NCBI RefSeq assembly: GCF_000196555.1
Contig: NC_015067.1
Span: forward strand, 1,920,001-1,952,000
DNA: 32,000 bases
Source: Bifidobacterium longum subsp. longum JCM 1217
GTDB lineage: Bacteria; Actinomycetota; Actinomycetes; Actinomycetales; Bifidobacteriaceae
Direction: 5' to 3'
Part shown: in pieces, positions 6,321-30,904 of the stretch
Layout of the letters: the number at the start of each line of letters is the position of its first letter
Position numbering within the stretch: position 1 is the stretch's first letter
Program-made: the position numbers and the translations under genes
Notes under the pieces: generated by a model
Databases searched by the model: none
Told to the model about the DNA's origin: nothing
Seen by the model: only the letters and a program-made list of their open reading frames with translations

Positions 6321-8042
6321 TCATTCCGATTGTTCGGTTGTGTTCTTGCTTGTACTGTTGCCGTCGTATATATCGGCAAGCGGCTGGAACGTAGAGCCTT
6401 CCCAATCGGAGGCGTACACCACGTTGACACGTGCTTCCACCACATAGGGAATATTGATTTTTAATTCTGGGCCGTTGTCCGGCATGGCGGATTCCTTATA
6501 CAACCATTCGTGATCAGGCCCATTGGTGGCACTTTCAGCTTCGAAGAAAACAAAGCTTGGACCCATGTAGTTGTTGTATACCATCTCGTATTTGCCGCCA
6601 ACGTCACTCGAAGTGGAGTAGTAGGAGTCGGCGGTGCCGAAGGCGTAAGTGCAGGAATCCGGCAGAACGATATGCACTTGCGCCTGTGTTGCGGCTATGG
6701 TGATGGTACCGACCGGGCAATTACTGATGGAAGTTTTGCCATCCAGCATCTTCACCGTGTGCGGTCCATGTGTCTTGTCCCAATCGGACCAATCAATGAT
6801 TGCCTGATCGGTGTTGTAGTTTTCACCGCTGAACGCCACACCTTGCTGCAATGTTTCAAACGTGGCATCGCTGGCATCGGCAACGAAGATGCCATCCTTT
6901 TGCACATCGTTCATGCCGTCGCTGTTTCTCGCACTGACAGATTGGCTCAGTGAAACAACAGTATTGATGCCGCTGGCACCAAGATCACGGTAGTACACGC
7001 CATACGTGCCTGAAACGATGGTCATGCAGAGCGCGCATCCACCGGCAACCAGTCCGAGAGGAATCAGACCACCGGTACGCCGTCCTCTGAATCCGAGAAT
7101 GATGACCACCAGCCCCATCACTATGCATACTGCGGCAATCCAGATGGTGCCCAGACGCATAATGCCGATAATGCCCATGTCGTTTACCCAAATCAGTCCC
7201 ATCAGACCGGCAAAGGAGAGGAAGGTAAGGCCCAGTATGCTCAAGACCACGATTGGGCCCGCCGGCTTGCGGCGCTTGGACTCGGTGGGGGCATAGGCCG
7301 TCGCATTCATACGGTCGGGGGCAAACGGCCCGTTGGGTACTGTGCCGGGCATCGCGCCGGGCACAGTACCCGGCATCACGCTGGGCATCGACTGATAGAC
7401 AGGCTGTGAAACAGGCTGTGAAACACTAGGCGCGGTTTGTGAAACAGGCTGTGAAACAGGTTGTGGAAAAGGTTGCGGAGCTGAATACAAAGGAGATTGA
7501 GGTACTGGTTGCGCGGCTGGATATGAGACAGGCTGTGGAGCTGGATATGACACAGGCTGTGAAACCGGTCGCGGCGCAGATGCCCCGAATCCGTACCCTT
7601 CCTGCTGGCGAATGCCGCTTTTGGCCAACAGCCATAGCGCTAAGGCGGCGAGCGCAATACAACCCCACCCCGCACCTGGAATCACGATTGCCACGGCGAG
7701 GAACAGGAAGCATCCCAGACAATTCCAGTCCCATTGGCCGGCAATGAGGTCCTCGGCCAAGATGTGCCCATCGCGTACATCCGGCATCAGAAACCAGCCG
7801 AGTGCGTACAGAGCTGCGCCAAAACCGAAGAACAATGTACATACAATCACCAACGCACGTACTAATGTGGGGCTCCAGCCAAGCCGTAAAGCGATGCCGC
7901 TGCATACGCCGCCGATCCACCGGTCGTCGCCGCGAACCAGTCCACTGGATCGCACCCAAGTGAAGAAGCGTCGCGATGTCTTGTTTTTTTGCGGACCAGG
8001 CTGCGGCTGTGGCTGATATGGATTCGCGTTTGGATTGCTCAT
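6321..8042 (-). CDS. PspC-domain membrane protein with proline-rich linker, multi-TM region and about 230-aa extracytoplasmic C-terminal domain
   Basis: The preferred start is ATG 8042 (MSNPNANPYQPQPQ). The upstream extension to 8177 is Cys/Arg-rich and would overlap the divergent kinase gene. FFTWVRSSGLVRGDDRWIGGVCSGIALRLGWSPTLVRALVIVCTLFFGFGAALYALGWFLMPD is a canonical PspC domain. A PVSQ/PVSY/PQPV repeat block is encoded at about 7395-7575. Confidence 0.8.
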   Translation of the reverse strand: MSNPNANPYQPQPQPGPQKNKTSRRFFTWVRSSGLVRGDDRWIGGVCSGIALRLGWSPTLVRALVIVCTLFFGFGAALYALGWFLMPDVRDGHILAEDLIAGQWDWNCLGCFLFLAVAIVIPGAGWGCIALAALALWLLAKSGIRQQEGYGFGASAPRPVSQPVSYPAPQPVSYPAAQPVPQSPLYSAPQPFPQPVSQPVSQTAPSVSQPVSQPVYQSMPSVMPGTVPGAMPGTVPNGPFAPDRMNATAYAPTESKRRKPAGPIVVLSILGLTFLSFAGLMGLIWVNDMGIIGIMRLGTIWIAAVCIVMGLVVIILGFRGRRTGGLIPLGLVAGGCALCMTIVSGTYGVYYRDLGASGINTVVSLSQSVSARNSDGMNDVQKDGIFVADASDATFETLQQGVAFSGENYNTDQAIIDWSDWDKTHGPHTVKMLDGKTSISNCPVGTITIAATQAQVHIVLPDSCTYAFGTADSYYSTSSDVGGKYEMVYNNYMGPSFVFFEAESATNGPDHEWLYKESAMPDNGPELKINIPYVVEARVNVVYASDWEGSTFQPLADIYDGNSTSKNTTEQSE

Positions 8043-9439: not shown

Positions 9440-10131
9440 GCGAGAACGAGACAGCCAAGATTCGTGTGGCCATGGTCGATGACCATGAGATGTTCCGTGC
9501 GGGCGTAATCGCCACGTTGCGCGATTCCTTCGATATCGTCGGCCAAGCGGCGGACGTGCCCGGTTCGGTGGCGATGATCGCACAGACCAAGCCGCAGGTG
9601 GTGTTGCTGGATGTGCATGTGCCCGGCGGCGAGGGTGGCGGCGGTGCCGAGATCCTCGCCAAATCGCGGCCCTACTCCCCCACTACCGTGTTTCTGGCAT
9701 TGTCGGTTTCGGATGCGCCGCAGGATGTGGGGTCGGTGATTCGCGCCGGCGCCCAGGGCTATGTAACCAAGACGATTACCGGCGCTGATTTGATTTCATC
9801 CATCAAGCAGGTGCATGAGGGCTATGCCGTGTTCTCGCCAAAACTGGCCGGTTTTGTACTTTCGACCTTCCAGGGTGTGCCGGCGGCGGGGTCTGATGGC
9901 GGCGCTGATGGTGCGGCACGGGCTCATGATGAGGAGCTGGACCGGCTGTCCGCCCGCGAGCAGGAGGTCATGCGGCTGATCGCGCGTGGTTACACGTATA
10001 AAGAGGTGGCGGCCGAACTGTTCATTTCGATCAAGACGGTCGAAACGCACGTGAGCTCGGTGTTGCGAAAGCTTCAGCTTTCGAATCGCACCGAGCTCAC
10101 CCGCTGGGCCGCCGATAGGCGCATTGTGTGA
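9436..10131 (+). CDS. LuxR/NarL-family response regulator
   Basis: Its ATG overlaps the kinase stop (ATGA at 9436-9439), indicating translational coupling. The receiver domain is IRVAMVDDHEMFR...VVLLDVHVPGG. The C-terminal GerE/LuxR helix-turn-helix is LSAREQEVMRLIARGYTYKEVAAELFISIKTVETHVSSVLRKLQLSNRTEL. Confidence 0.9.
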   Translation: MSENETAKIRVAMVDDHEMFRAGVIATLRDSFDIVGQAADVPGSVAMIAQTKPQVVLLDVHVPGGEGGGGAEILAKSRPYSPTTVFLALSVSDAPQDVGSVIRAGAQGYVTKTITGADLISSIKQVHEGYAVFSPKLAGFVLSTFQGVPAAGSDGGADGAARAHDEELDRLSAREQEVMRLIARGYTYKEVAAELFISIKTVETHVSSVLRKLQLSNRTELTRWAADRRIV

Positions 10132-10140
10132 TAAACGACA

Positions 10141-10170
10141 GATGAGCTCCCTCATCAGAGGGAGCTCATC
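10141..10170. terminator. Bidirectional hairpin between the convergent response regulator and epimerase genes (palindromic element, copy 2)
   Basis: GATGAGCTCCCTC-ATCA-GAGGGAGCTCATC is a perfect 13-bp stem. It lies 10 nt after the regulator stop and 9 nt after the epimerase stop. No long U-tract is present on either side. Confidence 0.6.
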
Positions 10171-10178
10171 TGCTCATA

Positions 10179-11201
10179 TCACTCCGCGTCGCGGAAACCG
10201 TTGGGGTTCTTGGTCTGCCAGTTGAGGGAGGAGGCGGCCATGTCGTCGATGGTCAGCTCGGCCTTCCAGCCAAGCTCCTTCTCCGCCTTGGAAGCGTCGG
10301 CGTAGCAGGCGGCGATGTCACCGGGGCGACGCGGCTTGATCGCGTACGGAATCGGATGACCGGCGGCCTTCTCGTAAGCCTTGATAACCTCAAGCACGGA
10401 GTAGCCGTGGCCAGTACCCAGGTTGTAGACGAACACGCCTTCCTTGTCGATGTGGTCAATGACGGCCACGTGGCCCTTGGCCAGGTCGACCACGTGGATG
10501 TAGTCACGCACACCAGTGCCGTCGGGCGTGTCGTAGTCGTCGCCGTAGACCTGGACTTCCTTGAGCTCGCCGACCGCGACCTTGGCCACGTACGGGGTGA
10601 GGTTCGCCGGAATACCCTTCGGGTCTTCGCCCAGCAGGCCGGACTCGTGCGCGCCGACCGGGTTGAAGTAGCGCAGCAGCACGATGGTCCAGGACGGATC
10701 GGCCACATGCACGTCGCGCAGAATCTGCTCCTGGAACAGCTTGGAGGTGCCGTACGGGTTGGTGGTGCCGCCGGTCGGCGTCTCCTCGGTGATCGGCAGT
10801 TCCTTCGGCGTGCCGTACACGGTGGCGGAGGATGAGAAGATGATCTTCTTGACGTTGTGCTTCTTCATCACCTTGAGCAGCACAAGCGTGGAGTACAGGT
10901 TGTTGTCGTAGTATTCGATCGGCTTGGCCACGGACTCGCCCACGGCCTTGAGACCGGCGAAGTGGATGACCCAGTCGATGTTGTTTTCAGCGAAGACGCG
11001 TTCCATGAGCGCCTCATCGCGCACGTCGCCGTCATAACGCTTGACCGGCTTGCCGGTGATTTGCTCGACGCGCTCAAGCGCCACGGGCGACGAGTTGCCG
11101 TAGTTATCTACGGAAATAACGTCGTAGCCCTTGTTGAGCAGTTCGATGTCGGTGTGAGTGGCGATGAATCCAGCACCGCCCGTAACCAGAACAGTAGTCA
11201 T
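10179..11201 (-). CDS. lnpD: UDP-glucose/UDP-GlcNAc 4-epimerase (GalE family) of the GNB/LNB pathway
   Basis: MTTVLVTGGAGFIATH is a Rossmann GxxGxxG motif and the catalytic YxxxK is YGTSKLFQE. The protein is 340 aa, AAGGAGGG precedes the ATG, and the gene is last in the lnpABCD order. Confidence 0.95.
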   Translation of the reverse strand: MTTVLVTGGAGFIATHTDIELLNKGYDVISVDNYGNSSPVALERVEQITGKPVKRYDGDVRDEALMERVFAENNIDWVIHFAGLKAVGESVAKPIEYYDNNLYSTLVLLKVMKKHNVKKIIFSSSATVYGTPKELPITEETPTGGTTNPYGTSKLFQEQILRDVHVADPSWTIVLLRYFNPVGAHESGLLGEDPKGIPANLTPYVAKVAVGELKEVQVYGDDYDTPDGTGVRDYIHVVDLAKGHVAVIDHIDKEGVFVYNLGTGHGYSVLEVIKAYEKAAGHPIPYAIKPRRPGDIAACYADASKAEKELGWKAELTIDDMAASSLNWQTKNPNGFRDAE

Positions 11202-22645: not shown

Positions 22646-23827
22646 ATGCCTCAGCCTGCCCTCACCGTGTTTCTGATCATCGCCGCAATCGCCATTGTGG
22701 TGGTGCTCATCGCCGTCATCGTCATCGCTCTGCGCGCGCAGCGCCGCCGCAAGCTGGCTCAGACGCTGGAGAAGCGCCGGGACGACGAGGTGCAGTACGC
22801 CTTCATCGTGAATCCGTCCAAACCGCAGGCCGAAGCCCGCAGGCTGCATATCCAGAGGTTCTGCGAGGCCAAGGGGCTCAATCGCATCCGCTTCTACGAC
22901 ACCCAGCTTGACAAGGACGGCAGGGTCTGCGCGCTTGAGGCGCTGGAGGACGGCGCCGACGTGGTGATCGCGGTCGGCGGCGACGGCACAGTGCGCACGG
23001 TGGCGAGCGCCGTCTCCGGCACCGGCCATGCGCTGGGCATCATCCCCATCGGCACCGGCAACCTGTTTGCCCGCAATATGGGCGTTCCCGTGGACGATAT
23101 CGACGCCGCGCTGACCGTGGCCACCTCCCACGGCTCCCGCCTGGTGGACATGGGCCGTCTCACCCTGCTCGACCACCCGGAGGACGACCACGGCCACGCC
23201 TTCCTCATCATCGCCGGCATCGGCTTCGATGCGGCCATGATCGACGACACCAACCCCGAGCTCAAGGCGAACATCAGCTGGCTCGCCTACTTCGTGGGCG
23301 GCGTGAAGAACCTGTTCGCGCCGAAGTTCCGCGGCACGCTGACAGTCACCAGCGCCGACGGCTCGACCCACACCATCAAGAATCTCGATTTCCGCACGGT
23401 GATGGCCGGCAACTGCGGCCAGATTCCCATGTTCTCGCTGATGCCGGCGGCATCCTATGACGATGGTCTGCTGGACTTCGAAATCATCGACACCACCGGC
23501 GGCATCCTCGGCTGGGCCAACCTGTTCGGCGACGTGGTGCACCAGACGATCATCGGCAAGCCCGAACAGAACCCGCTGTCCACGAACTCGACCATCGAAC
23601 AGGTTCAGGGCGTCAGTGCCGAAATCACATTGGAAAAGCCGGCCAAAGCGCAGGTGGACGGCGACATGCTACCGGAGACCAAACATATTCGTTTCTCAGT
23701 GGATCATCGCGCGCTGATCGTGCGCGTACCCGACGCCTCCGCGCTGGAAAAGACCGCACAGGCCGCTGCCTCAAACGCCACCTCGGATTTCGCCGAAATG
23801 ACCGGCACGCTCGAGCCGATTCGCTGA
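22646..23827 (+). CDS. Diacylglycerol-kinase-family lipid kinase with N-terminal TM anchor
   Basis: ATG 22646 follows AGGAG (aataGGAGccATG). MPQPALTVFLIIAAIAIVVVLIAVIVIAL is the TM helix. The DAGK_cat signature is VVIAVGGDGTVRTVASAV ... IIPIGTGNLFARN. The track ORF extension to 22448 overlaps the serS leader and has no RBS. Confidence 0.85.
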   Translation: MPQPALTVFLIIAAIAIVVVLIAVIVIALRAQRRRKLAQTLEKRRDDEVQYAFIVNPSKPQAEARRLHIQRFCEAKGLNRIRFYDTQLDKDGRVCALEALEDGADVVIAVGGDGTVRTVASAVSGTGHALGIIPIGTGNLFARNMGVPVDDIDAALTVATSHGSRLVDMGRLTLLDHPEDDHGHAFLIIAGIGFDAAMIDDTNPELKANISWLAYFVGGVKNLFAPKFRGTLTVTSADGSTHTIKNLDFRTVMAGNCGQIPMFSLMPAASYDDGLLDFEIIDTTGGILGWANLFGDVVHQTIIGKPEQNPLSTNSTIEQVQGVSAEITLEKPAKAQVDGDMLPETKHIRFSVDHRALIVRVPDASALEKTAQAAASNATSDFAEMTGTLEPIR

Positions 23828-23831
23828 TCCG

Positions 23832-24671
23832 CTACGATGCGTGGCCGGTGACTCGGGCGACGTGCATTGCCAGATAGGCGGTTTCGTCGTCGCTGATATC
23901 CGTGTCGAGGCGCAGTTCGAGCAGGGAGGCGATGGTTCGCGCGCATCGTAGCGCGGCGGGATAGGACTCACGAATCACCTTCATCACCGGTGCCGGCTCA
24001 TCCGTCAGTTGCTGGTGCTGGTGGATGCGTACGAACAGGTAACGCAGATGGGTGATGAACCTGCCCACATTCACGGAACTGCGGTCCAACGTGATGCCGT
24101 AGCTGTGGTCGATAATGTCAAGCAGTTGCTGGATCACGCCCGTCATCGTATACGTATAGGACAGGTCGCCGGTGGCGAAGCCGGCGTTGACCAGATGCAT
24201 GGCAAGCGCGGTGGCCTCGCCGTCCGGCAGCGTGACGTCGAGCCGCGCATTGAGCGATGCGAGCATCGCACGCCCCTGCGCGTATTCCTGCGGGTACAGG
24301 TTGCTCACCTCGCCGAGCAGCGGGTAGGTAATGTCGATGCCGCGCCGCACCCGCTCCACCGCATTCGCCACGTGATCCGACAAGGCCATGACCAGCGTGG
24401 TGCTGCCGGTCTCACGCTCCCCCAGTCCGGCTTCCTGCATGGATTCGACGACCACGCGGATGATTTCGGGCGGAATGTCCGCCAGCATCTGCGCCAGATG
24501 GTCCGGGTCACGCCCGTCCGACGGCACGAAGGTGCGCACGACTTTCGACTCGTCGACCGTCTGCCCCGGCTTGGCCTGGAACCCCAGTCCACGGCCGGTG
24601 AGAATCACCTCACCGCCGTCGCCGCCTTTGGCGAGCACGACGTTGTTGTTGAACACTCGCAGTATTTCCAT
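23832..24671 (-). CDS. BglG/LicT/SacY-family PRD-containing transcriptional antiterminator
   Basis: MEILRVFNNNVVLAKGGDGGEVILTGRGLGFQAKPGQTVDESKVVRTF is the CAT RNA-binding domain. Two PRD modules follow (ALSDHVANAVERVR..., ALAMHLVNAGF..., RFITHLRYLFVRI..., ETAYLAMHVARV). ATG 24671 follows AAAGGA. An alternative ATG at 24692 overlaps the PTS stop (ATGA). Confidence 0.9.
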   Translation of the reverse strand: MEILRVFNNNVVLAKGGDGGEVILTGRGLGFQAKPGQTVDESKVVRTFVPSDGRDPDHLAQMLADIPPEIIRVVVESMQEAGLGERETGSTTLVMALSDHVANAVERVRRGIDITYPLLGEVSNLYPQEYAQGRAMLASLNARLDVTLPDGEATALAMHLVNAGFATGDLSYTYTMTGVIQQLLDIIDHSYGITLDRSSVNVGRFITHLRYLFVRIHQHQQLTDEPAPVMKVIRESYPAALRCARTIASLLELRLDTDISDDETAYLAMHVARVTGHAS

Positions 24672-24688
24672 GGCATCCTTTCGCAACG

Positions 24689-27100
24689 TCATTGTTCCAC
24701 ATCGATGATCGGGCTGCCGGCTGATACGGTTTTGCAGTCACCGCCGTTGTTGTCGCCGCTACCGTCGCCGATCAACGGCGTGACCACGGTCAGTTCAGCG
24801 GCGTTGACCACCGTCACCACCACCACAACGCTGTGCCCGGCCGCCGCGACTTTGCCGAAATCCACGGTGGCCAGTGGCTCTCCCGCCGCGATCCGCTCGC
24901 CTTTAGCCACGACCACAGCGAATCCCTCGCCATCCATATCGACGGTGTCAATGCCGATATGAACCAGCACCTCGATGCCGCCATCGGTTTTAATGCCGAA
25001 GGCATGGCCGGTTCGGGCCACGGTTTTCAGCATGCCACTGACCGGTGCGAGCACGGCTGTCTCACCGGTCGTCTCCGGCACGACGCCTACACCCTCCCCC
25101 AGCGCGCGGGAGGCGAACACCGGATCGCCAGTCGCTTCCAGATTCATCAACCGGCCGGCGACCGGCGACAGGATGGCGTTGGAGTCAGGAGTCCGATCGG
25201 AGGCAGGCCGCGATGGGGAATCTTCCGCAGACTCCGCATCCGACGATGTCGCGCCAATCCCTCTCACCGCATCCTGCGAGCGTACGTTCTCGCCCGCCGA
25301 GACCATCTGCGCCTCCGTGGCGCGCGGCGGCGTACGGTACCCGAACAGCACCGTCAGCACCATCGCCATTACAAACGCAACGGCGATGGACAGCGCGTAC
25401 ACCCACATTCTGTCAAACACCGGAATCGTCAGCAACGAGGAGAAGGCGAACGCCGTAGTCGTGACGCCCCGGACCATCTGACCGGATGGCAGCACGGACG
25501 GGAACAGCCAGCCAAGCACCGCGCTGGTCACGCCGCCGGCCGCGCAGCCGGCGAGCAGCCAGCGGTAGACGCGGCGGTGATGCAGATGGATGCCGTACAG
25601 GCTCAGTTCCGAAACGCCACCCAGCAATCCCGCGAGCAACGCCCCCACCGCGGTCTGCCGCATGGCCGAATCCTTGCCGCGTACGGCCAGCACGAGCACG
25701 CCAGCGGTGGCACCGAAGCAGGCAAAGTTCCATACACCCATCGGACCTTGGACGAAATCGTAGCCGAGCGCCTGAATGTTCATCAGCATCAGGGCATTCA
25801 ACGGCCAGTGCAGACCGAGCGGCACGAGAAACGGGTAGAGCATCGGGATGATGAGCGCGAATAGGAACGGCACGTGCGCGTTAAGCCATGCTGTGGCCGC
25901 TCCCAGCCCACCGCCGAGCCATATTCCCAGAGGCCCGATAACCAGTATGGTGAGCGCAAAAACGACGACCAGTGAGAGGAATGGCACGAACACCAGCTGT
26001 ACGCTGTCGGGAATGACGCGCTTCAACCCGTGGTAGACCACGGCGAGCACGGCAGCCATGAGCAACGGCACGAAGACGTTGCCGCCGTAGTCGTTGAGTT
26101 GAATCGGTATGCCGAACGCCGACACGGTGCAGGTTTCGGTGCCGAATACGGCGTTGGCCGAGCATTGAATCGCCCCGGAGAGGGCGCTGGATACGGACGT
26201 CCCGGACATTCCGGACATCACGCCAGTAAACTGCGGGGTCATCAGCGCGGCCATAATCGCGCCGCCGAGCCAGGGGTCGACGTCCAGTTTCTTGGCCGCA
26301 TTGTAGGCGATCATAATCGGCAGAACGGTGAACACACCCTCCCAAATCGCCTTGAGTAGTATCCAACCGGTGGACGTCTCGCCATCAGGCACAATGCCGA
26401 GTGCAACGATCACGTTGACGATGGCGATGACCAGCGAGGCACCGAGTAGCACGCCCAGAATCGGGCGGAACGAGTCGGACAGGTAGTCGAAAAACGCGGC
26501 AGCCCGGGCACGGGCGGCACTGCCCCACTCGCGGATGGTACGAGGCATGAAGTGACGGGATGTATTGGCTGGGCCGTGACTCTGCTCGGTGTCGGTATCG
26601 CGCAATGGTGCGACGTCGTCGGAAAGGTTCGGCGCGGACTGCGTAGGCTGCGTAGGCTGAGTGGATTGCGTTGACTGAGTGGATTGCGTTGACTGAGTGG
26701 ATTGCGTTGACTGAGTGGATTGCGTTGACTGAGTGGATTGCGTTGACTGAGTGGATTGCGTTGACTGAGTGGATTGCGCGGACTGCGTTGGCCGCGACGC
26801 CGCCGATGGTAATTGCGTTGCCGGAGTCAATCGCGCTGCCTGCATCCGAACGATCTGCTCGTACACCGAGGCGACCGCTCCGCCGATGATGACCTGATAA
26901 CGATTGCCGGTTCGCGGGAATGCGCCGAGGACTCCGGGGATGGATTCGAGACCGTGCTGGCTGACCTGGCCGGCGTCGTCCAGTTCGAAGTGCAGTCGCG
27001 TGGCGCAATGGGTCAGGTTGGTGATGTTCGCGGAGCCGCCGACGGCATCAACGATGCACGCCGCAATCACTGCAGGCGTTGCGTTCGATGCGTTCGCCAC
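24689..27100 (-). CDS. ptsG: PTS glucose/beta-glucoside-family permease, fused EIIB-EIIC-EIIA
   Basis: The preferred start is GTG 27100, 5 nt after AAGGAGG. The EIIB site is ITNLTHCATRLHFEL and the EIIC core is polytopic. The EIIA region is GHAFGIKTDGGIEVLVHIGIDTVDMDGEGF. The protein is about 803 aa. The gene symbol follows my memory of the B. longum literature. Confidence 0.9.
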   Translation of the reverse strand: MANASNATPAVIAACIVDAVGGSANITNLTHCATRLHFELDDAGQVSQHGLESIPGVLGAFPRTGNRYQVIIGGAVASVYEQIVRMQAARLTPATQLPSAASRPTQSAQSTQSTQSTQSTQSTQSTQSTQSTQSTQSTQSTQSTQSTQPTQPTQSAPNLSDDVAPLRDTDTEQSHGPANTSRHFMPRTIREWGSAARARAAAFFDYLSDSFRPILGVLLGASLVIAIVNVIVALGIVPDGETSTGWILLKAIWEGVFTVLPIMIAYNAAKKLDVDPWLGGAIMAALMTPQFTGVMSGMSGTSVSSALSGAIQCSANAVFGTETCTVSAFGIPIQLNDYGGNVFVPLLMAAVLAVVYHGLKRVIPDSVQLVFVPFLSLVVVFALTILVIGPLGIWLGGGLGAATAWLNAHVPFLFALIIPMLYPFLVPLGLHWPLNALMLMNIQALGYDFVQGPMGVWNFACFGATAGVLVLAVRGKDSAMRQTAVGALLAGLLGGVSELSLYGIHLHHRRVYRWLLAGCAAGGVTSAVLGWLFPSVLPSGQMVRGVTTTAFAFSSLLTIPVFDRMWVYALSIAVAFVMAMVLTVLFGYRTPPRATEAQMVSAGENVRSQDAVRGIGATSSDAESAEDSPSRPASDRTPDSNAILSPVAGRLMNLEATGDPVFASRALGEGVGVVPETTGETAVLAPVSGMLKTVARTGHAFGIKTDGGIEVLVHIGIDTVDMDGEGFAVVVAKGERIAAGEPLATVDFGKVAAAGHSVVVVVTVVNAAELTVVTPLIGDGSGDNNGGDCKTVSAGSPIIDVEQ
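26639..26782. repeat. Coding tandem repeat: two copies of 9 bp plus six perfect and one degenerate copy of an 18-bp unit, in the EIIB-EIIC linker
   Basis: CTGCGTAGG occurs twice. CTGAGTGGATTGCGTTGA then starts at 26657, 26675, 26693, 26711, 26729 and 26747, with a degenerate copy at 26765. On the minus strand the block encodes SAQ-(STQ)12-PTQ-PTQ. Confidence 0.95.
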
Positions 27101-27399
27101 GGTTCCTCCTTGCTGCCGTATGCCACTGTGTTCCATTATCGGCGCTGGGTGCCCCAAAAGCACGGCAATGCCGGCAAAGCATCGCGAAACGGCAACTATG
27201 CGCTACGGTGCTCCGCGATAGCGTTCCGCTATGGTGTTCCGCCGCACCCGTTCTCCGTATTTGCCGCAGCGCCCATTCCGACTTCATTCCACCATGCAGA
27301 ATCCTGCAATCGTTGTCAAAAATCATCGTTTTTTGCCGCCTATTCGGAGTGTCGCGACCGAGAAAGTCGTATCCTATCTTTCACACACGTTGCGTAGCA

Positions 27400-27427
27400 G
27401 GGTTGTTACTCAAAATGAGGCAAGACC
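27400..27427 (+). promoter_or_regulatory. Ribonucleic antiterminator (RAT) site in the glcP leader
   Basis: GGGTTGTTACTCAAAATGAGGCAAGACC compares with the BglG/SacY/LicT RAT consensus GGNTTGTTACTG-loop-CAGGCAARACC. The apical stem is CTCA/TGAG. The 3' nucleotides GACC are shared with the terminator stem that starts at 27424. Confidence 0.8.
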
Positions 27428-27495
27428 TGGAGTGACGTGGAATTTGCGTATCGTAATATGCGAATTCCACGTTGTTCCAGGTCTTTTTTTGTTTT
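27424..27495 (+). terminator. Intrinsic terminator (conditional, RAT-controlled) upstream of glcP
   Basis: A 27-bp uninterrupted helix (27424-27450 pairing with 27457-27483, including five G-U pairs) has loop TCGTAA and is followed by TTTTTTTGTTTT (27484-27495). It lies about 90 nt upstream of the glcP ATG. Confidence 0.85.
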
Positions 27496-27586
27496 CGGGC
27501 GACTTCAGGCAATCGAAGCCTGACCTTGCATGCGGCAGAGGGGCCACGCGGCAGGCGCGGCCCGTCAACGGCGAAAGGACAAGGCA

Positions 27587-29140
27587 ATGACGACGACAAC
27601 GGCATCACCCGTATCGAAGCAGACGGCATCCGCGGCACAGGAGACCGGCGCAACCGGTGCAGCGGCCACCGCAATCGAAACCATCGAAACCGGCGTGGCC
27701 GGGGTGGCGGACGCGGCCACAAACGCGGCAGCAAACGCAATCGAGGACCTCGAAGCCGCCGAATCACGCGGCTTCTCCACGCGCTTCCCGCTCAACAGCG
27801 CATTCATCTTCACCTTCGGCGCGCTCGGCGGCATGCTGTTCGGTTTCGACACCGGCATCATCTCCGGCGCCTCCCCGCTTATCGAATCAGACTTCGGCCT
27901 GAGCGTCTCCCAGACCGGCTTCATCACCTCCTCGGTGCTGATCGGCTCGTGCGCAGGTGCGTTGTCGATCGGCGCACTGTCTGACCGGTTCGGCCGCAAG
28001 AAGCTGCTCATCGTCTCCGCGCTGCTGTTCCTGCTCGGCTCAGGCCTGTGCGCCTCCTCCACCGGATTCGCGATGATGGTGTGCGCCCGCATCATCCTGG
28101 GCCTCGCCGTCGGCGCGGCCTCCGCCCTGACCCCGGCGTACTTGGCCGAACTGGCGCCGAAGGAGCGTCGCGGCTCACTGTCCACGCTCTTCCAGCTCAT
28201 GGTCACCTTCGGCATTCTGCTGGCCTACGCCTCCAACCTCGGATTCCTGAACCACAACCTCTTCGGCATCCGCGACTGGCGCTGGATGCTCGGTTCGGCG
28301 CTGGTGCCGGCCGCCTTGTTGCTGCTCGGCGGCCTGCTGCTGCCCGAATCCCCGCGTTATCTGGTGAACAAGGGCGACACCCGCAACGCCTTCAAAGTGC
28401 TTACGCTGATTCGCAAGGACGTGGATCAGACCCAGGTGCAGATTGAGCTGGACGAAATCAAGGCCGTGGCCGCACAGGACACCAAGGGTGGCGTGCGCGA
28501 ACTGTTCCGTATCGCTCGTCCAGCGCTGGTGGCCGCCATTGGCATCATGCTGTTCCAGCAGCTCGTGGGCATCAACTCGGTGATCTACTTCCTGCCGCAG
28601 GTGTTCATCAAAGGCTTCGGCTTCCCTGAAGGCGACGCAATCTGGGTGTCGGTGGGCATCGGCGTGGTGAACTTCGTGAGCACCATCGTGGCCACGCTTA
28701 TCATGGATCGTTTCCCGCGCAAGGGCGTGCTGATCTTCGGTTCCATCGTGATGACCGTTTCGCTCGCAGTGCTCGCCGTGATGAACTTCGTGGGCGACGT
28801 GGCCGTGCTGGCCGTGCCGACGATGATTCTCATCGCTTTCTATATCCTCGGCTTTGCGGTCTCGTGGGGCCCGATCGCCTGGGTGCTTATCGGCGAGATC
28901 TTCCCGCTGAGCGTGCGCGGCATCGGCTCCTCCTTCGGCTCGGCGGCGAACTGGCTGGGCAACTTCATCGTCTCCCAGTTCTTCCTCGTGCTGCTCGATG
29001 CGTTCGGCAACAATGTGGGCGGCCCGTTCGCGATTTTCGGCGTGTTTTCGGCCCTGTCCATCCCGTTCGTGATGCGCTTGGTGCCCGAGACCAACGGCAA
29101 GTCGCTGGAGGAAATCGAGGAGGAAATGACCAAGCGCTAG
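27587..29140 (+). CDS. glcP: Sugar-porter-family MFS transporter (glucose/H+ symporter)
   Basis: ATG 27587 follows GAAAGGACAAGG. The protein is 517 aa. Sugar-porter signatures are GRKKLLIVSALLFLLG, PESPRYL and PETNGKSLEEIEEEM. It has 12 TM helices and an Ala/Thr-rich N-terminal extension of about 60 aa. Confidence 0.9.
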   Translation: MTTTTASPVSKQTASAAQETGATGAAATAIETIETGVAGVADAATNAAANAIEDLEAAESRGFSTRFPLNSAFIFTFGALGGMLFGFDTGIISGASPLIESDFGLSVSQTGFITSSVLIGSCAGALSIGALSDRFGRKKLLIVSALLFLLGSGLCASSTGFAMMVCARIILGLAVGAASALTPAYLAELAPKERRGSLSTLFQLMVTFGILLAYASNLGFLNHNLFGIRDWRWMLGSALVPAALLLLGGLLLPESPRYLVNKGDTRNAFKVLTLIRKDVDQTQVQIELDEIKAVAAQDTKGGVRELFRIARPALVAAIGIMLFQQLVGINSVIYFLPQVFIKGFGFPEGDAIWVSVGIGVVNFVSTIVATLIMDRFPRKGVLIFGSIVMTVSLAVLAVMNFVGDVAVLAVPTMILIAFYILGFAVSWGPIAWVLIGEIFPLSVRGIGSSFGSAANWLGNFIVSQFFLVLLDAFGNNVGGPFAIFGVFSALSIPFVMRLVPETNGKSLEEIEEEMTKR

Positions 29141-29227
29141 ACAACCGGCACACGATTCGCACAAAAGTTGACAACTCTTAACATAATCGTACCCAACGTG
29201 GCGAAAAAACGTGGCAGAATAGGGAGC

Positions 29228-30904
29228 ATGGTAGCAAACAATGCGGGTCAGCCCGCCACCCCAGCAGATCTGATCAATGTCGATGAGGTTATCGGCAAAT
29301 ACTATGACCTCGTCCCCGATCCCGAAGTCCCCGAGCAGCGTGTCATCTTCGGCACCTCCGGCCACCGCGGATCGTCCCTGAAGACCTCGTTCAACGAGGC
29401 CCACATCATCGCCATCTCCCAGGCCATCGCCGAATACCGCAAGAAGGCCGGCGTCACCGGCCCGCTGTACCTCGGCTCCGACACCCACGCGCTGTCCGGC
29501 CCGGCCAAGAAGACCGCCATCGAGGTGCTCGTCGCCAACGGCGTGCACGTGCGCGTCGATTCCCGTGACGACTTCGTGCCCACCCCGGTGGTCTCCCAGG
29601 CCATCCTGACCCACAACCGTGCGGCCGACGGCACCCAGCGCTTCGAGGGCGAGGGCCTCGCCGACGGCATCGTCGTCACGCCGTCCCACAACCCGCCCAC
29701 CGACGGTGGCTTCAAGTACGACCCCGTCACCGGCGGCCCGGCTCCGGCCGAGACCACCAATGCCATCGCCGCTCGCGCCAACGAGCTGCTCGGCGACTTC
29801 AAGTCCATCAAGCGTGTGCCCTACGAGGAGGCCATCAAGTCCGAGTACGTCGAGGGCTTCGACTTCCGCGAGCACTACGTGGACGACCTGGAGAACGTCA
29901 TCGACTTCGACGTGATCCGCAACTCCGGCGTGCGTCTGGGCATCGATCCGCTCGGCGGCGCTTCCGTGAACTACTGGCCGCTCATCAACGAGAAGTACGG
30001 CCTGAACATCGGCGTGGTGCGTCCTGAGGTCGACCCGACCTGGCGCTTCATGACCATCGACCACGACGGCAAGATCCGCATGGACCCGTCTTCCCCGTAC
30101 GCCATGAAGGGCCTGGTCGACGAGCTCAACGCCGGCGCTTGGGACAAGTACGATCTGGTCGGCGGCACCGACCCGGACGCCGACCGTCACGGCATCGTCT
30201 GCCCGAACTGGGGCGTGATGAACCCGAACCACTACATCGCCGTGTGCGTGGAGTACCTGTTCGGCGGCAACCGTCCGGGCTGGCCTGAGGGCGCAGCCGT
30301 GGGCAAGACGCTGGTCTCCTCTTCCCTGATCGACCGCGTGGCCGCATCGATCAACGCGAAGGTCATCGAAGTGCCGGTGGGCTTCAAGTGGTTCGTGGAC
30401 CCGCTGTTCAGCGGCGAAGTCGCCTTCGGCGGCGAGGAGAGCTCCGGCATGAGCTTCCTGCGCAAGGACGGCCGCGTGTGGACCACCGATAAGGATGGTC
30501 TGATCCCCGACCTGCTGGCCGCCGAGATCACCGCCAAGACCGGCAAGAACCCGGCCCAGCTTCACCAGGAGCAGGTCGAGCGCTTCGGCGAGTCTTGGTA
30601 CAAGCGCGTCGACACCCCGACCACGCTGGAGCAGAAGGCCAAGTTCGCCAAGCTGACCGGTGATGATGTGGCCGCCACGCAGCTGGCTGGCGAAGACATC
30701 ACCGCCAAGCTGACCGAGGCACCGGGCAACCACGCCAAGATCGGCGGTCTGAAGGTCACCACCAAGGACAACTGGTTCGCCGCCCGCCCCTCCGGCACCG
30801 AGAACATCTACAAGGTGTACGCCGAGTCTTTCGTCTCCCCCGAGGCTCTGGACAAGGTGCTCGACGAGGCCACCGTCGTGGTAGACAAGGCCCTGAGCGA
30901 GTGA
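29228..30904 (+). CDS. pgm: Phosphoglucomutase (alpha-D-glucose-phosphate specific)
   Basis: ATG 29228 follows AGGGAG. The protein is 558 aa. The active-site Ser loop is VVTPSHNPPTDGGFKY, the metal loop is GGTDPDADRHGIV and the sugar loop is GGEESSG. Confidence 0.95.
   Translation: MVANNAGQPATPADLINVDEVIGKYYDLVPDPEVPEQRVIFGTSGHRGSSLKTSFNEAHIIAISQAIAEYRKKAGVTGPLYLGSDTHALSGPAKKTAIEVLVANGVHVRVDSRDDFVPTPVVSQAILTHNRAADGTQRFEGEGLADGIVVTPSHNPPTDGGFKYDPVTGGPAPAETTNAIAARANELLGDFKSIKRVPYEEAIKSEYVEGFDFREHYVDDLENVIDFDVIRNSGVRLGIDPLGGASVNYWPLINEKYGLNIGVVRPEVDPTWRFMTIDHDGKIRMDPSSPYAMKGLVDELNAGAWDKYDLVGGTDPDADRHGIVCPNWGVMNPNHYIAVCVEYLFGGNRPGWPEGAAVGKTLVSSSLIDRVAASINAKVIEVPVGFKWFVDPLFSGEVAFGGEESSGMSFLRKDGRVWTTDKDGLIPDLLAAEITAKTGKNPAQLHQEQVERFGESWYKRVDTPTTLEQKAKFAKLTGDDVAATQLAGEDITAKLTEAPGNHAKIGGLKVTTKDNWFAARPSGTENIYKVYAESFVSPEALDKVLDEATVVVDKALSE

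Follow-up and report, generated by a model that had tools for sequence, protein, structure and literature searches.

A predicted RAT/terminator antitermination switch upstream of glcP, a glucose permease gene of Bifidobacterium longum and its relatives

The leader of the glucose permease gene glcP in the 32-kb stretch of Bifidobacterium longum DNA analysed here (the window, to which all positions refer unless a locus is named) very probably functions as a LicT-type antitermination switch that is run by the PtsG-controlled antiterminator licT/GlcR. The preference of B. longum for lactose over glucose, a trait that bears on infant-gut colonisation, goes back to the glucose transporter GlcP; a PTS-coupled switch in its leader would provide a handle on sugar preference via licT, the RAT (ribonucleic antiterminator) and the terminator. 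The antitermination mechanism for glcP is a predicted one. The finding is correct but already known, because the assignment of a RAT and the control of glcP by ptsG/licT have been published. What is added here are coordinates, folding statistics, covariation counts, the distribution of the element, evidence that ptsG is not autoregulated in the B. longum clade and a second class of RAT elsewhere in the genus.

The RAT, with the letters GGGTTGTTACTCAAAATGAGGCAAGACC, occupies positions 27400-27427 of the plus strand and is predicted to be bound by a BglG/LicT-type protein through its CAT domain. An earlier note on this DNA had described this 28-mer as fitting the RAT consensus, and this stands: the letters are as quoted there and the pattern match is exact. 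The 32-kb window contains a single match to the pattern GGNTTGTTACT-N8-GGCAARACC, and 100 dinucleotide-preserving shuffles contain none. When all 32 kb were scanned, with filters off, with a covariance model built from 13 RATs (R1), the glcP RAT was recovered as the sole RAT (54.1 bits, E 3e-14), the second-best match being the palindromic terminator arm on the reverse strand with 13 bits. The empty shuffles (0/100) and the E-value rule out a chance match. Judged by the pattern, the 54 bits and the pairing in 97.2% of cells across 33 distinct RATs, the element is a conserved RAT of the ~29-nt kind that folds with two internal loops. It does not belong to the Rfam family bglG-cis-reg (RF03530), for which it reaches 26.7 bits against a gathering threshold of 80 (E 0.13) in an alignment that spans model positions 54-120, i.e. 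the terminator half only. The glcP leader element would act like bglG-cis-reg leaders and is not a member of the curated family. An Rfam E-value scan of positions 23000-29500 yielded only sub-threshold matches, including Listeria rli52 with 24.9 bits against 70; matches to miRNA precursors were discarded as spurious, attracted by the long hairpin.

That long hairpin is part of an intrinsic terminator (27422-27495, plus strand) found by a terminator scan and composed of a hairpin at 27422-27485 and a U tract at 27484-27495. The hairpin is a perfect one of 30 bp (dG -44.6 kcal/mol, z -9.8 versus shuffles), and the U tract reads T7 at 27484-27490, then G, then TTTT. The 3' end of the RAT and the beginning of the 5' arm of the hairpin have six nucleotides in common (AAGACC, 27422-27427), and because these are used by both, the RAT and terminator folds are mutually exclusive. 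The geometry of an overlapping RAT and terminator with U7, as claimed earlier, is thus confirmed, and only the sizes need minor correction, from 4 nt and 27 bp to 6 nt and 30 bp. As in other RAT systems, the RAT overlaps the 5' arm of a terminator upstream of the target gene, here at a terminator-to-glcP distance of 92 nt.

The gene following the switch, at 27587-29140 on the plus strand, encodes an MFS sugar porter/glucose-H+ symporter of 517 amino acids (Pfam Sugar_tr, 3e-111) that scores 368.7 bits with an NCBIfam sugar-porter subfamily, over the cut-off, and is indeed the MFS permease gene glcP in front of which the switch had been placed. An identical B. longum protein is present on at least 1000 contigs. 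From this identity, the genes are taken to correspond to BL1631 (glcP), BL1632 (ptsG) and BL1633 (licT) of strain NCC2705. The protein carries an N-terminal extension of ~60 residues, rich in Ala and Thr (27587-27770, plus strand), that is not conserved beyond the B. longum group. No terminator was found after glcP (29141-29227, plus strand), and pgm (the BL1630 equivalent) begins ~87 nt past it with its own TTGACA-containing promoter-like sequence ahead. It is possible that the RAT-controlled transcript reads through into pgm. In published expression data comparing glucose with galactose, pgm and glcP shift in opposite directions.

On the minus strand, ptsG (BL1632 equivalent, 24689-27100) encodes a PTS permease with EIIB, EIIC and EIIA domains in this order (Pfam EIIB, EIIC and EIIA_1). 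It starts with GTG at 27100, preceded by AAGGAGG, and its nearest NCBIfam model is that for beta-glucoside-type IIABC, with a score under the cut-off. PtsG probably is a working transporter besides a sensor, and it is presumed, by analogy, that as a sensor it determines how far the antiterminator is phosphorylated. A stretch of ~60-100 residues between EIIB and EIIC (26630-26810, minus strand) is poorly conserved, with tblastn alignments splitting at about residues 97 and 157.

The antiterminator gene licT/glcR (BL1633 equivalent, 23832-24671, minus strand) begins 17 nt past the ptsG stop codon with AAAGGA as ribosome-binding site, so that the EIIBCA gene is situated directly upstream in the same operon. 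Co-transcription of licT and ptsG across the 17-nt gap is predicted from this sequence. Both the gap and the domain composition (CAT_RBD, PRD1 and PRD2) bear out the earlier description of a PRD antiterminator behind the PTS EIIBCA gene on the opposite strand. The CAT domain is recognized by Pfam PF03123 (CAT_RBD, 1.4e-18) at residues 8-59 of the long open reading frame, and the N-terminus matches the CAT domains of PDB entries 1l1c (LicT) and 6twr. Two stretches are covered by the PRD model PF00874 (1.4e-36). In alignments with the B. subtilis LicT structures 1tlv and 1h99, all four phosphorylatable histidines are kept: the motifs SDHV, AMHLVNA, ITHL and AMHV align with TDHI, ALHIVNA, VTHL and TIHI of LicT (1tlv), which contain the regulatory histidines. 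The best NCBIfam models are those for LicT and GlcT, and the protein stays under the equivalog cut-offs of both (LicT NF046042, 238.2 bits versus 300; GlcT NF047357, 205.6 versus 320). By sequence, it would be classified as a BglG-family member that is the equivalog of neither. It falls into a cluster of 2412 members, of which those with a name are 279-residue PRD proteins from B. longum, and the form of this length is the B. longum protein at NCBI. BL1633 is listed by Khoroshkin 2016 as the BglG-family regulator GlcR, with a reconstructed glucose utilisation regulon of 17 sites in eight genomes (PMC4746261). Table 1 of that study gives a single BglG-family regulator for NCC2705, and each B. 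longum genome is reported there to have one protein of this family (PMC4746261).

Scanning genomes with the antiterminator as query resulted in 50 loci. All 16 Bifidobacterium loci in which glcP resides beside ptsG contain a RAT on the glcP strand (42-57 bits), and in all of them the RAT/terminator module is oriented toward glcP. These 16 loci also share the RAT-over-terminator geometry of the window, although the U tract is weak in two of them, L013 and L014. In every glcP leader examined, the hairpin is located at the same place and its base, AAGACCUGR/YCRGGUCUU, is conserved, while the upper stems differ by compensatory substitutions or have been wholly replaced. Within the RAT, all four apical-helix pairs covary (4/4; C-G to G-C in nine sequences and U-A to C-G in five), and the basal helix and the internal loops are invariant across the 33 distinct RATs. 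It is the basal helix and the internal loops of a RAT that the CAT domain contacts. A comparison of glcP leaders, suggested earlier as a check, reveals compensatory changes in the terminator stems, and the set of 33 RATs reveals them in the apical helix. Outside the bifidobacteria, loci from Corynebacterium, Arthrobacter, Propioniciclava, Streptomyces and Demequina have a near-identical RAT with terminator ahead of the operon for the PTS and the antiterminator, the canonical order, which ties the RAT element to this antiterminator family.

Some of the retrieved loci feature peculiarities. Locus L047, labelled uncultured Porphyromonadaceae, carries antiterminator, DAGK and SerRS genes of the Bifidobacterium type with 76-93% identity, and L037, labelled Sporosarcina beigongshangi, contains a RAT-PTS-antiterminator locus of the Arthrobacter type; these contigs seem to have been mis-binned or to stem from contamination. 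In L050 (B. merycicum), the antiterminator match at 10001-10835 consists of two overlapping pieces in different frames (10001-10441 and 10407-10835), which suggests that the gene is frameshifted or was sequenced with an error.

For B. longum, we propose the following chain of events. A nascent RNA starting at ~27382 would form either the 28-nt RAT hairpin or the 30-bp terminator. Without protein, the terminator would prevail and transcription would end at about 27484-27495, ahead of glcP. Active licT/GlcR would bind and stabilise the RAT with its CAT domain, thereby block the terminator and allow transcription to continue into glcP. If the protein behaves like BglG, SacY, LicT and GlcT, the EIIB domain of idle PtsG would phosphorylate PRD1 and keep the antiterminator inactive, and PtsG engaged in glucose transport would release it. 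Glucose sensed by the PTS would thus switch on the MFS glucose symporter GlcP. The steps from the protein onward are established knowledge for BglG, SacY, LicT and GlcT; for B. longum, we infer where the promoter and the start site lie, that the protein binds the RNA, in which direction the PRDs act and any connection with lactose repression.

This circuit, leading from a PTS sensor via the antiterminator to read-through into glcP, had already been drawn in the earlier note, and it appears as the best reading of the locus because the switch elements are conserved, the sole nearby PRD antiterminator is encoded behind the PTS gene and the ptsG of this clade lacks a RAT. It agrees with the published induction of glcP by glucose, as in NCC2705 the expression of glcP and BL1633 on glucose exceeds that on galactose (PMC10059941). 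A terminator and a RAT in the glcP regulatory region have been named before, as 'potential' ones, in 2023 (PMC10688810), and glcP-ptsG-licT was treated as one functional cluster (PMC10688810). The absence of a correlation of the cluster or the leader with sugar preference in this comparative study counts against the circuit (PMC10688810). In B. infantis ATCC 15697, an IS in the antiterminator gene coincides with a near-absent transcriptional response to glucose (PMC7522266). Searching the literature, we found no experimental test of RAT binding or antitermination for glcP.

Upstream of the RAT, a conserved block, the putative glcP promoter and 5' leader, extends over positions 27344-27399 (plus strand). 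It comprises three stretches that are invariant or nearly so: TCGGAGTGTCGCG at 27344-27356, GTCGTATCCT with the -10-like hexamer TATCCT at 27370-27375, and CACACGTTGCGTAGCA, which extends to the RAT, all on the plus strand. In 12 aligned Bifidobacterium intergenic regions, TCGGAGTGTCGCG, GTCGTAT(C/T)CT and CACACGTTGCGTAGCA are kept and the remaining spacer is unalignable. Because these blocks are conserved in an otherwise unalignable spacer, we infer a promoter whose -10 box would occupy 27370-27375 and from which transcription would start near 27382. A sigma-70 consensus scan reported no promoter in the ptsG-glcP intergenic region, and the -10 assignment derives from conservation alone. In other species, our reading of the sequences places a -10-like hexamer ~21-27 nt before the RATs in the ptsG leaders.

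The NCC2705 glcP-ptsG-licT cluster is said to have been described by Parche et al. in 2006, and glcP is reportedly repressed when lactose accompanies glucose, as the title of that work has it. Canonical PRD logic explains the induction of glcP by glucose and not by itself its repression by lactose. By this logic, any transport of glucose should induce glcP, and the reported repression therefore calls for one or more additional inputs, for instance PRD2/HPr control or a regulator acting at the promoter. The latter is plausible because of a conserved palindrome at 27305-27318 and because glcP is among the predicted MalR1 targets. It is conceivable, if somewhat short of probable, that the RAT/terminator serves glucose induction only and that lactose repression is exerted at the promoter via a LacI-family repressor or activator of the MalR1/AraQ type, which would complement antitermination. 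The LacI-family-like palindrome TGCAATCGTTGTCA (27305-27318, plus strand) belongs to the small number of blocks that are conserved in the ptsG-glcP spacer; it reads TGCAAACGATTGCA in four relatives (L003, L004, L007 and L011) and may be the operator through which MalR1/AraQ-type control and lactose repression are exerted. Against such a function, it is imperfect in B. longum, precedes the -10-like box by ~50-65 nt and could serve the divergent ptsG promoter instead. The prediction of glcP as a MalR1 target in NCC2705 stems from a listing in PMC10059941, which may concern the adjacent pgm. Repression left unexplained by PRD logic while glucose is present speaks in favour of a promoter-level regulator.

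The ptsG leader/promoter region also contains a pair of direct repeats of 16 nt, CGCTACGGTGCTCCGC and CGCTATGGTGTTCCGC (27201-27242, plus strand), which flank and overlap a palindrome, ATAGCGTTCCGCTAT (27218-27232), in an arrangement that is kept only in the closest relative, L001. It may represent a transcription-factor site for ptsG.

No RAT is present in the ptsG leader of the window, be it by a loose pattern, by the covariance model R1 with filters off or by a fuzzy regular expression allowing for the type-B variants described below, and no significant fold is formed (z 0.08). This agrees with the earlier note, in which no RAT comparable to that of glcP was seen ahead of the PTS gene. The stretch GCAGGATTCTGCA...GCGGCAAATACGGAG on the minus strand at ~27310-27250 was considered as a degenerate RAT and rejected, as it has neither a model score nor a terminator or a fold. 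In many other bifidobacteria, the ptsG leader contains a variant RAT, GCAGGGTTGC(A/T)AGTC...GACGCAAGACCTGAG, that overlaps a terminator. Variants on the plus strand are located at L023:7742-7778, L009:7718-7754, L022:7702-7738, L012:7691-7727, L015:7745-7781, L027:7686-7724, L028:7708-7746 and L050:7746-7783; further ones are found at L014:7731-7766, L013:7705-7774 and L006:7643-7714. The loci with a variant RAT and without an adjacent glcP are L009, L012, L015, L022, L023, L027-L029 and L050. Three species (L006, L013 and L014) possess both the variant and the glcP RAT, and B. longum and 13 relatives have the glcP RAT alone. In two of these relatives the entire spacer between RAT and ptsG measures ~95 nt, leaving no room for a leader switch before ptsG. 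Neither RAT was detected, by model or by fuzzy pattern, in the ptsG leaders (~7400-7750) of L016, L017, L019, L024, L045 and L049, all of which have kept ptsG and the antiterminator gene without an adjacent glcP. The element before glcP (type A) reads UUGUUAC...GAGGCAAG and that before ptsG (type B) UUGCAAG...GACGCAAG: the internal loop is UUA in the former and CAA in the latter, and the first apical pair is C-G versus G-C.

The occurrence of RATs in front of ptsG in other bifidobacteria also bears on the idea that the antiterminator has its main target at another RAT elsewhere in the genome, with the glcP RAT being weak or secondary. The published GlcR regulon with its 17 sites in eight genomes amounts to about two per genome (PMC4746261), and our RAT search covered 32 kb of this genome. 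Still, we consider this unlikely, since the glcP RAT is closest to the ancestral actinobacterial consensus, with R1 scores of 42-57 bits versus 20-30 bits for the ptsG-type variant, and the ptsG of the clade is devoid of a RAT. One may tentatively, and with slightly more doubt than confidence, go a step further: in the B. longum clade, ptsG-licT could have lost its self-regulating RAT (of type B in other bifidobacteria, of type A in other Actinobacteria), such that its expression would be independent of its own signal, PtsG would chiefly be a glucose sensor and GlcP the sole antitermination output. Where both RAT classes coexist, they could set an affinity hierarchy. If true, the glucose 'blindness' reported for B. 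infantis ATCC 15697 would go back to failed read-through into glcP and not to the loss of the PTS. The GlcR regulon, as published, may implicitly cover the distribution of the type-B RAT; its presence before ptsG and its absence from the B. longum clade possibly make a small addition to the known picture.

That the glcP RAT and terminator are a mere relic, a displaced ancestral ptsG leader with the true glcP promoter downstream of the hairpin, is highly improbable: the 92 nt between the terminator and the glcP start codon would offer space for a promoter, but the sigma-70 scan revealed no promoter-like site within 27496-27586, 22 RAT positions are invariant across genera next to an unalignable spacer, the terminator stems stay paired despite compensatory or wholesale changes and the module always points to glcP.

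A working antitermination switch in front of glcP, the reading that we prefer, finds close counterparts in known systems. The glcP-ptsG-licT cluster of NCC2705 (BL1631-BL1633) is the same locus and differs in nothing substantive. In the SacY/sacB and LicT/licS systems of B. subtilis, a PRD antiterminator set by an enzyme II acts on a RAT overlapping a terminator upstream of a non-PTS target gene. The RAT in the window matches the SacY and LicT RATs in its 5' half, GGNTTGTTACT, and its 3' half, GGCAAGACC, and the four LicT histidines align; it comprises 28 nt compared to the classical 29, and, unlike sacB and licS, the target gene encodes an alternative transporter for the very sugar sensed by the PTS. 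GlcT of B. subtilis and Staphylococcus antiterminates the leader of ptsG itself. In B. longum, a glucose PTS is likewise paired with a PRD antiterminator, but the RAT is located before glcP on the other strand and the ptsG leader is without one. The actinobacterial loci L030-L044 and L048, from Corynebacterium, Arthrobacter, Propioniciclava and Streptomyces, share the RAT GGRTTGTTAC...GGCAAGACCTGR over a terminator and encode orthologous antiterminators with 48-56% identity. In contrast to B. longum, their switch precedes the PTS gene, in an autoregulated operon, and an MFS gene is lacking.
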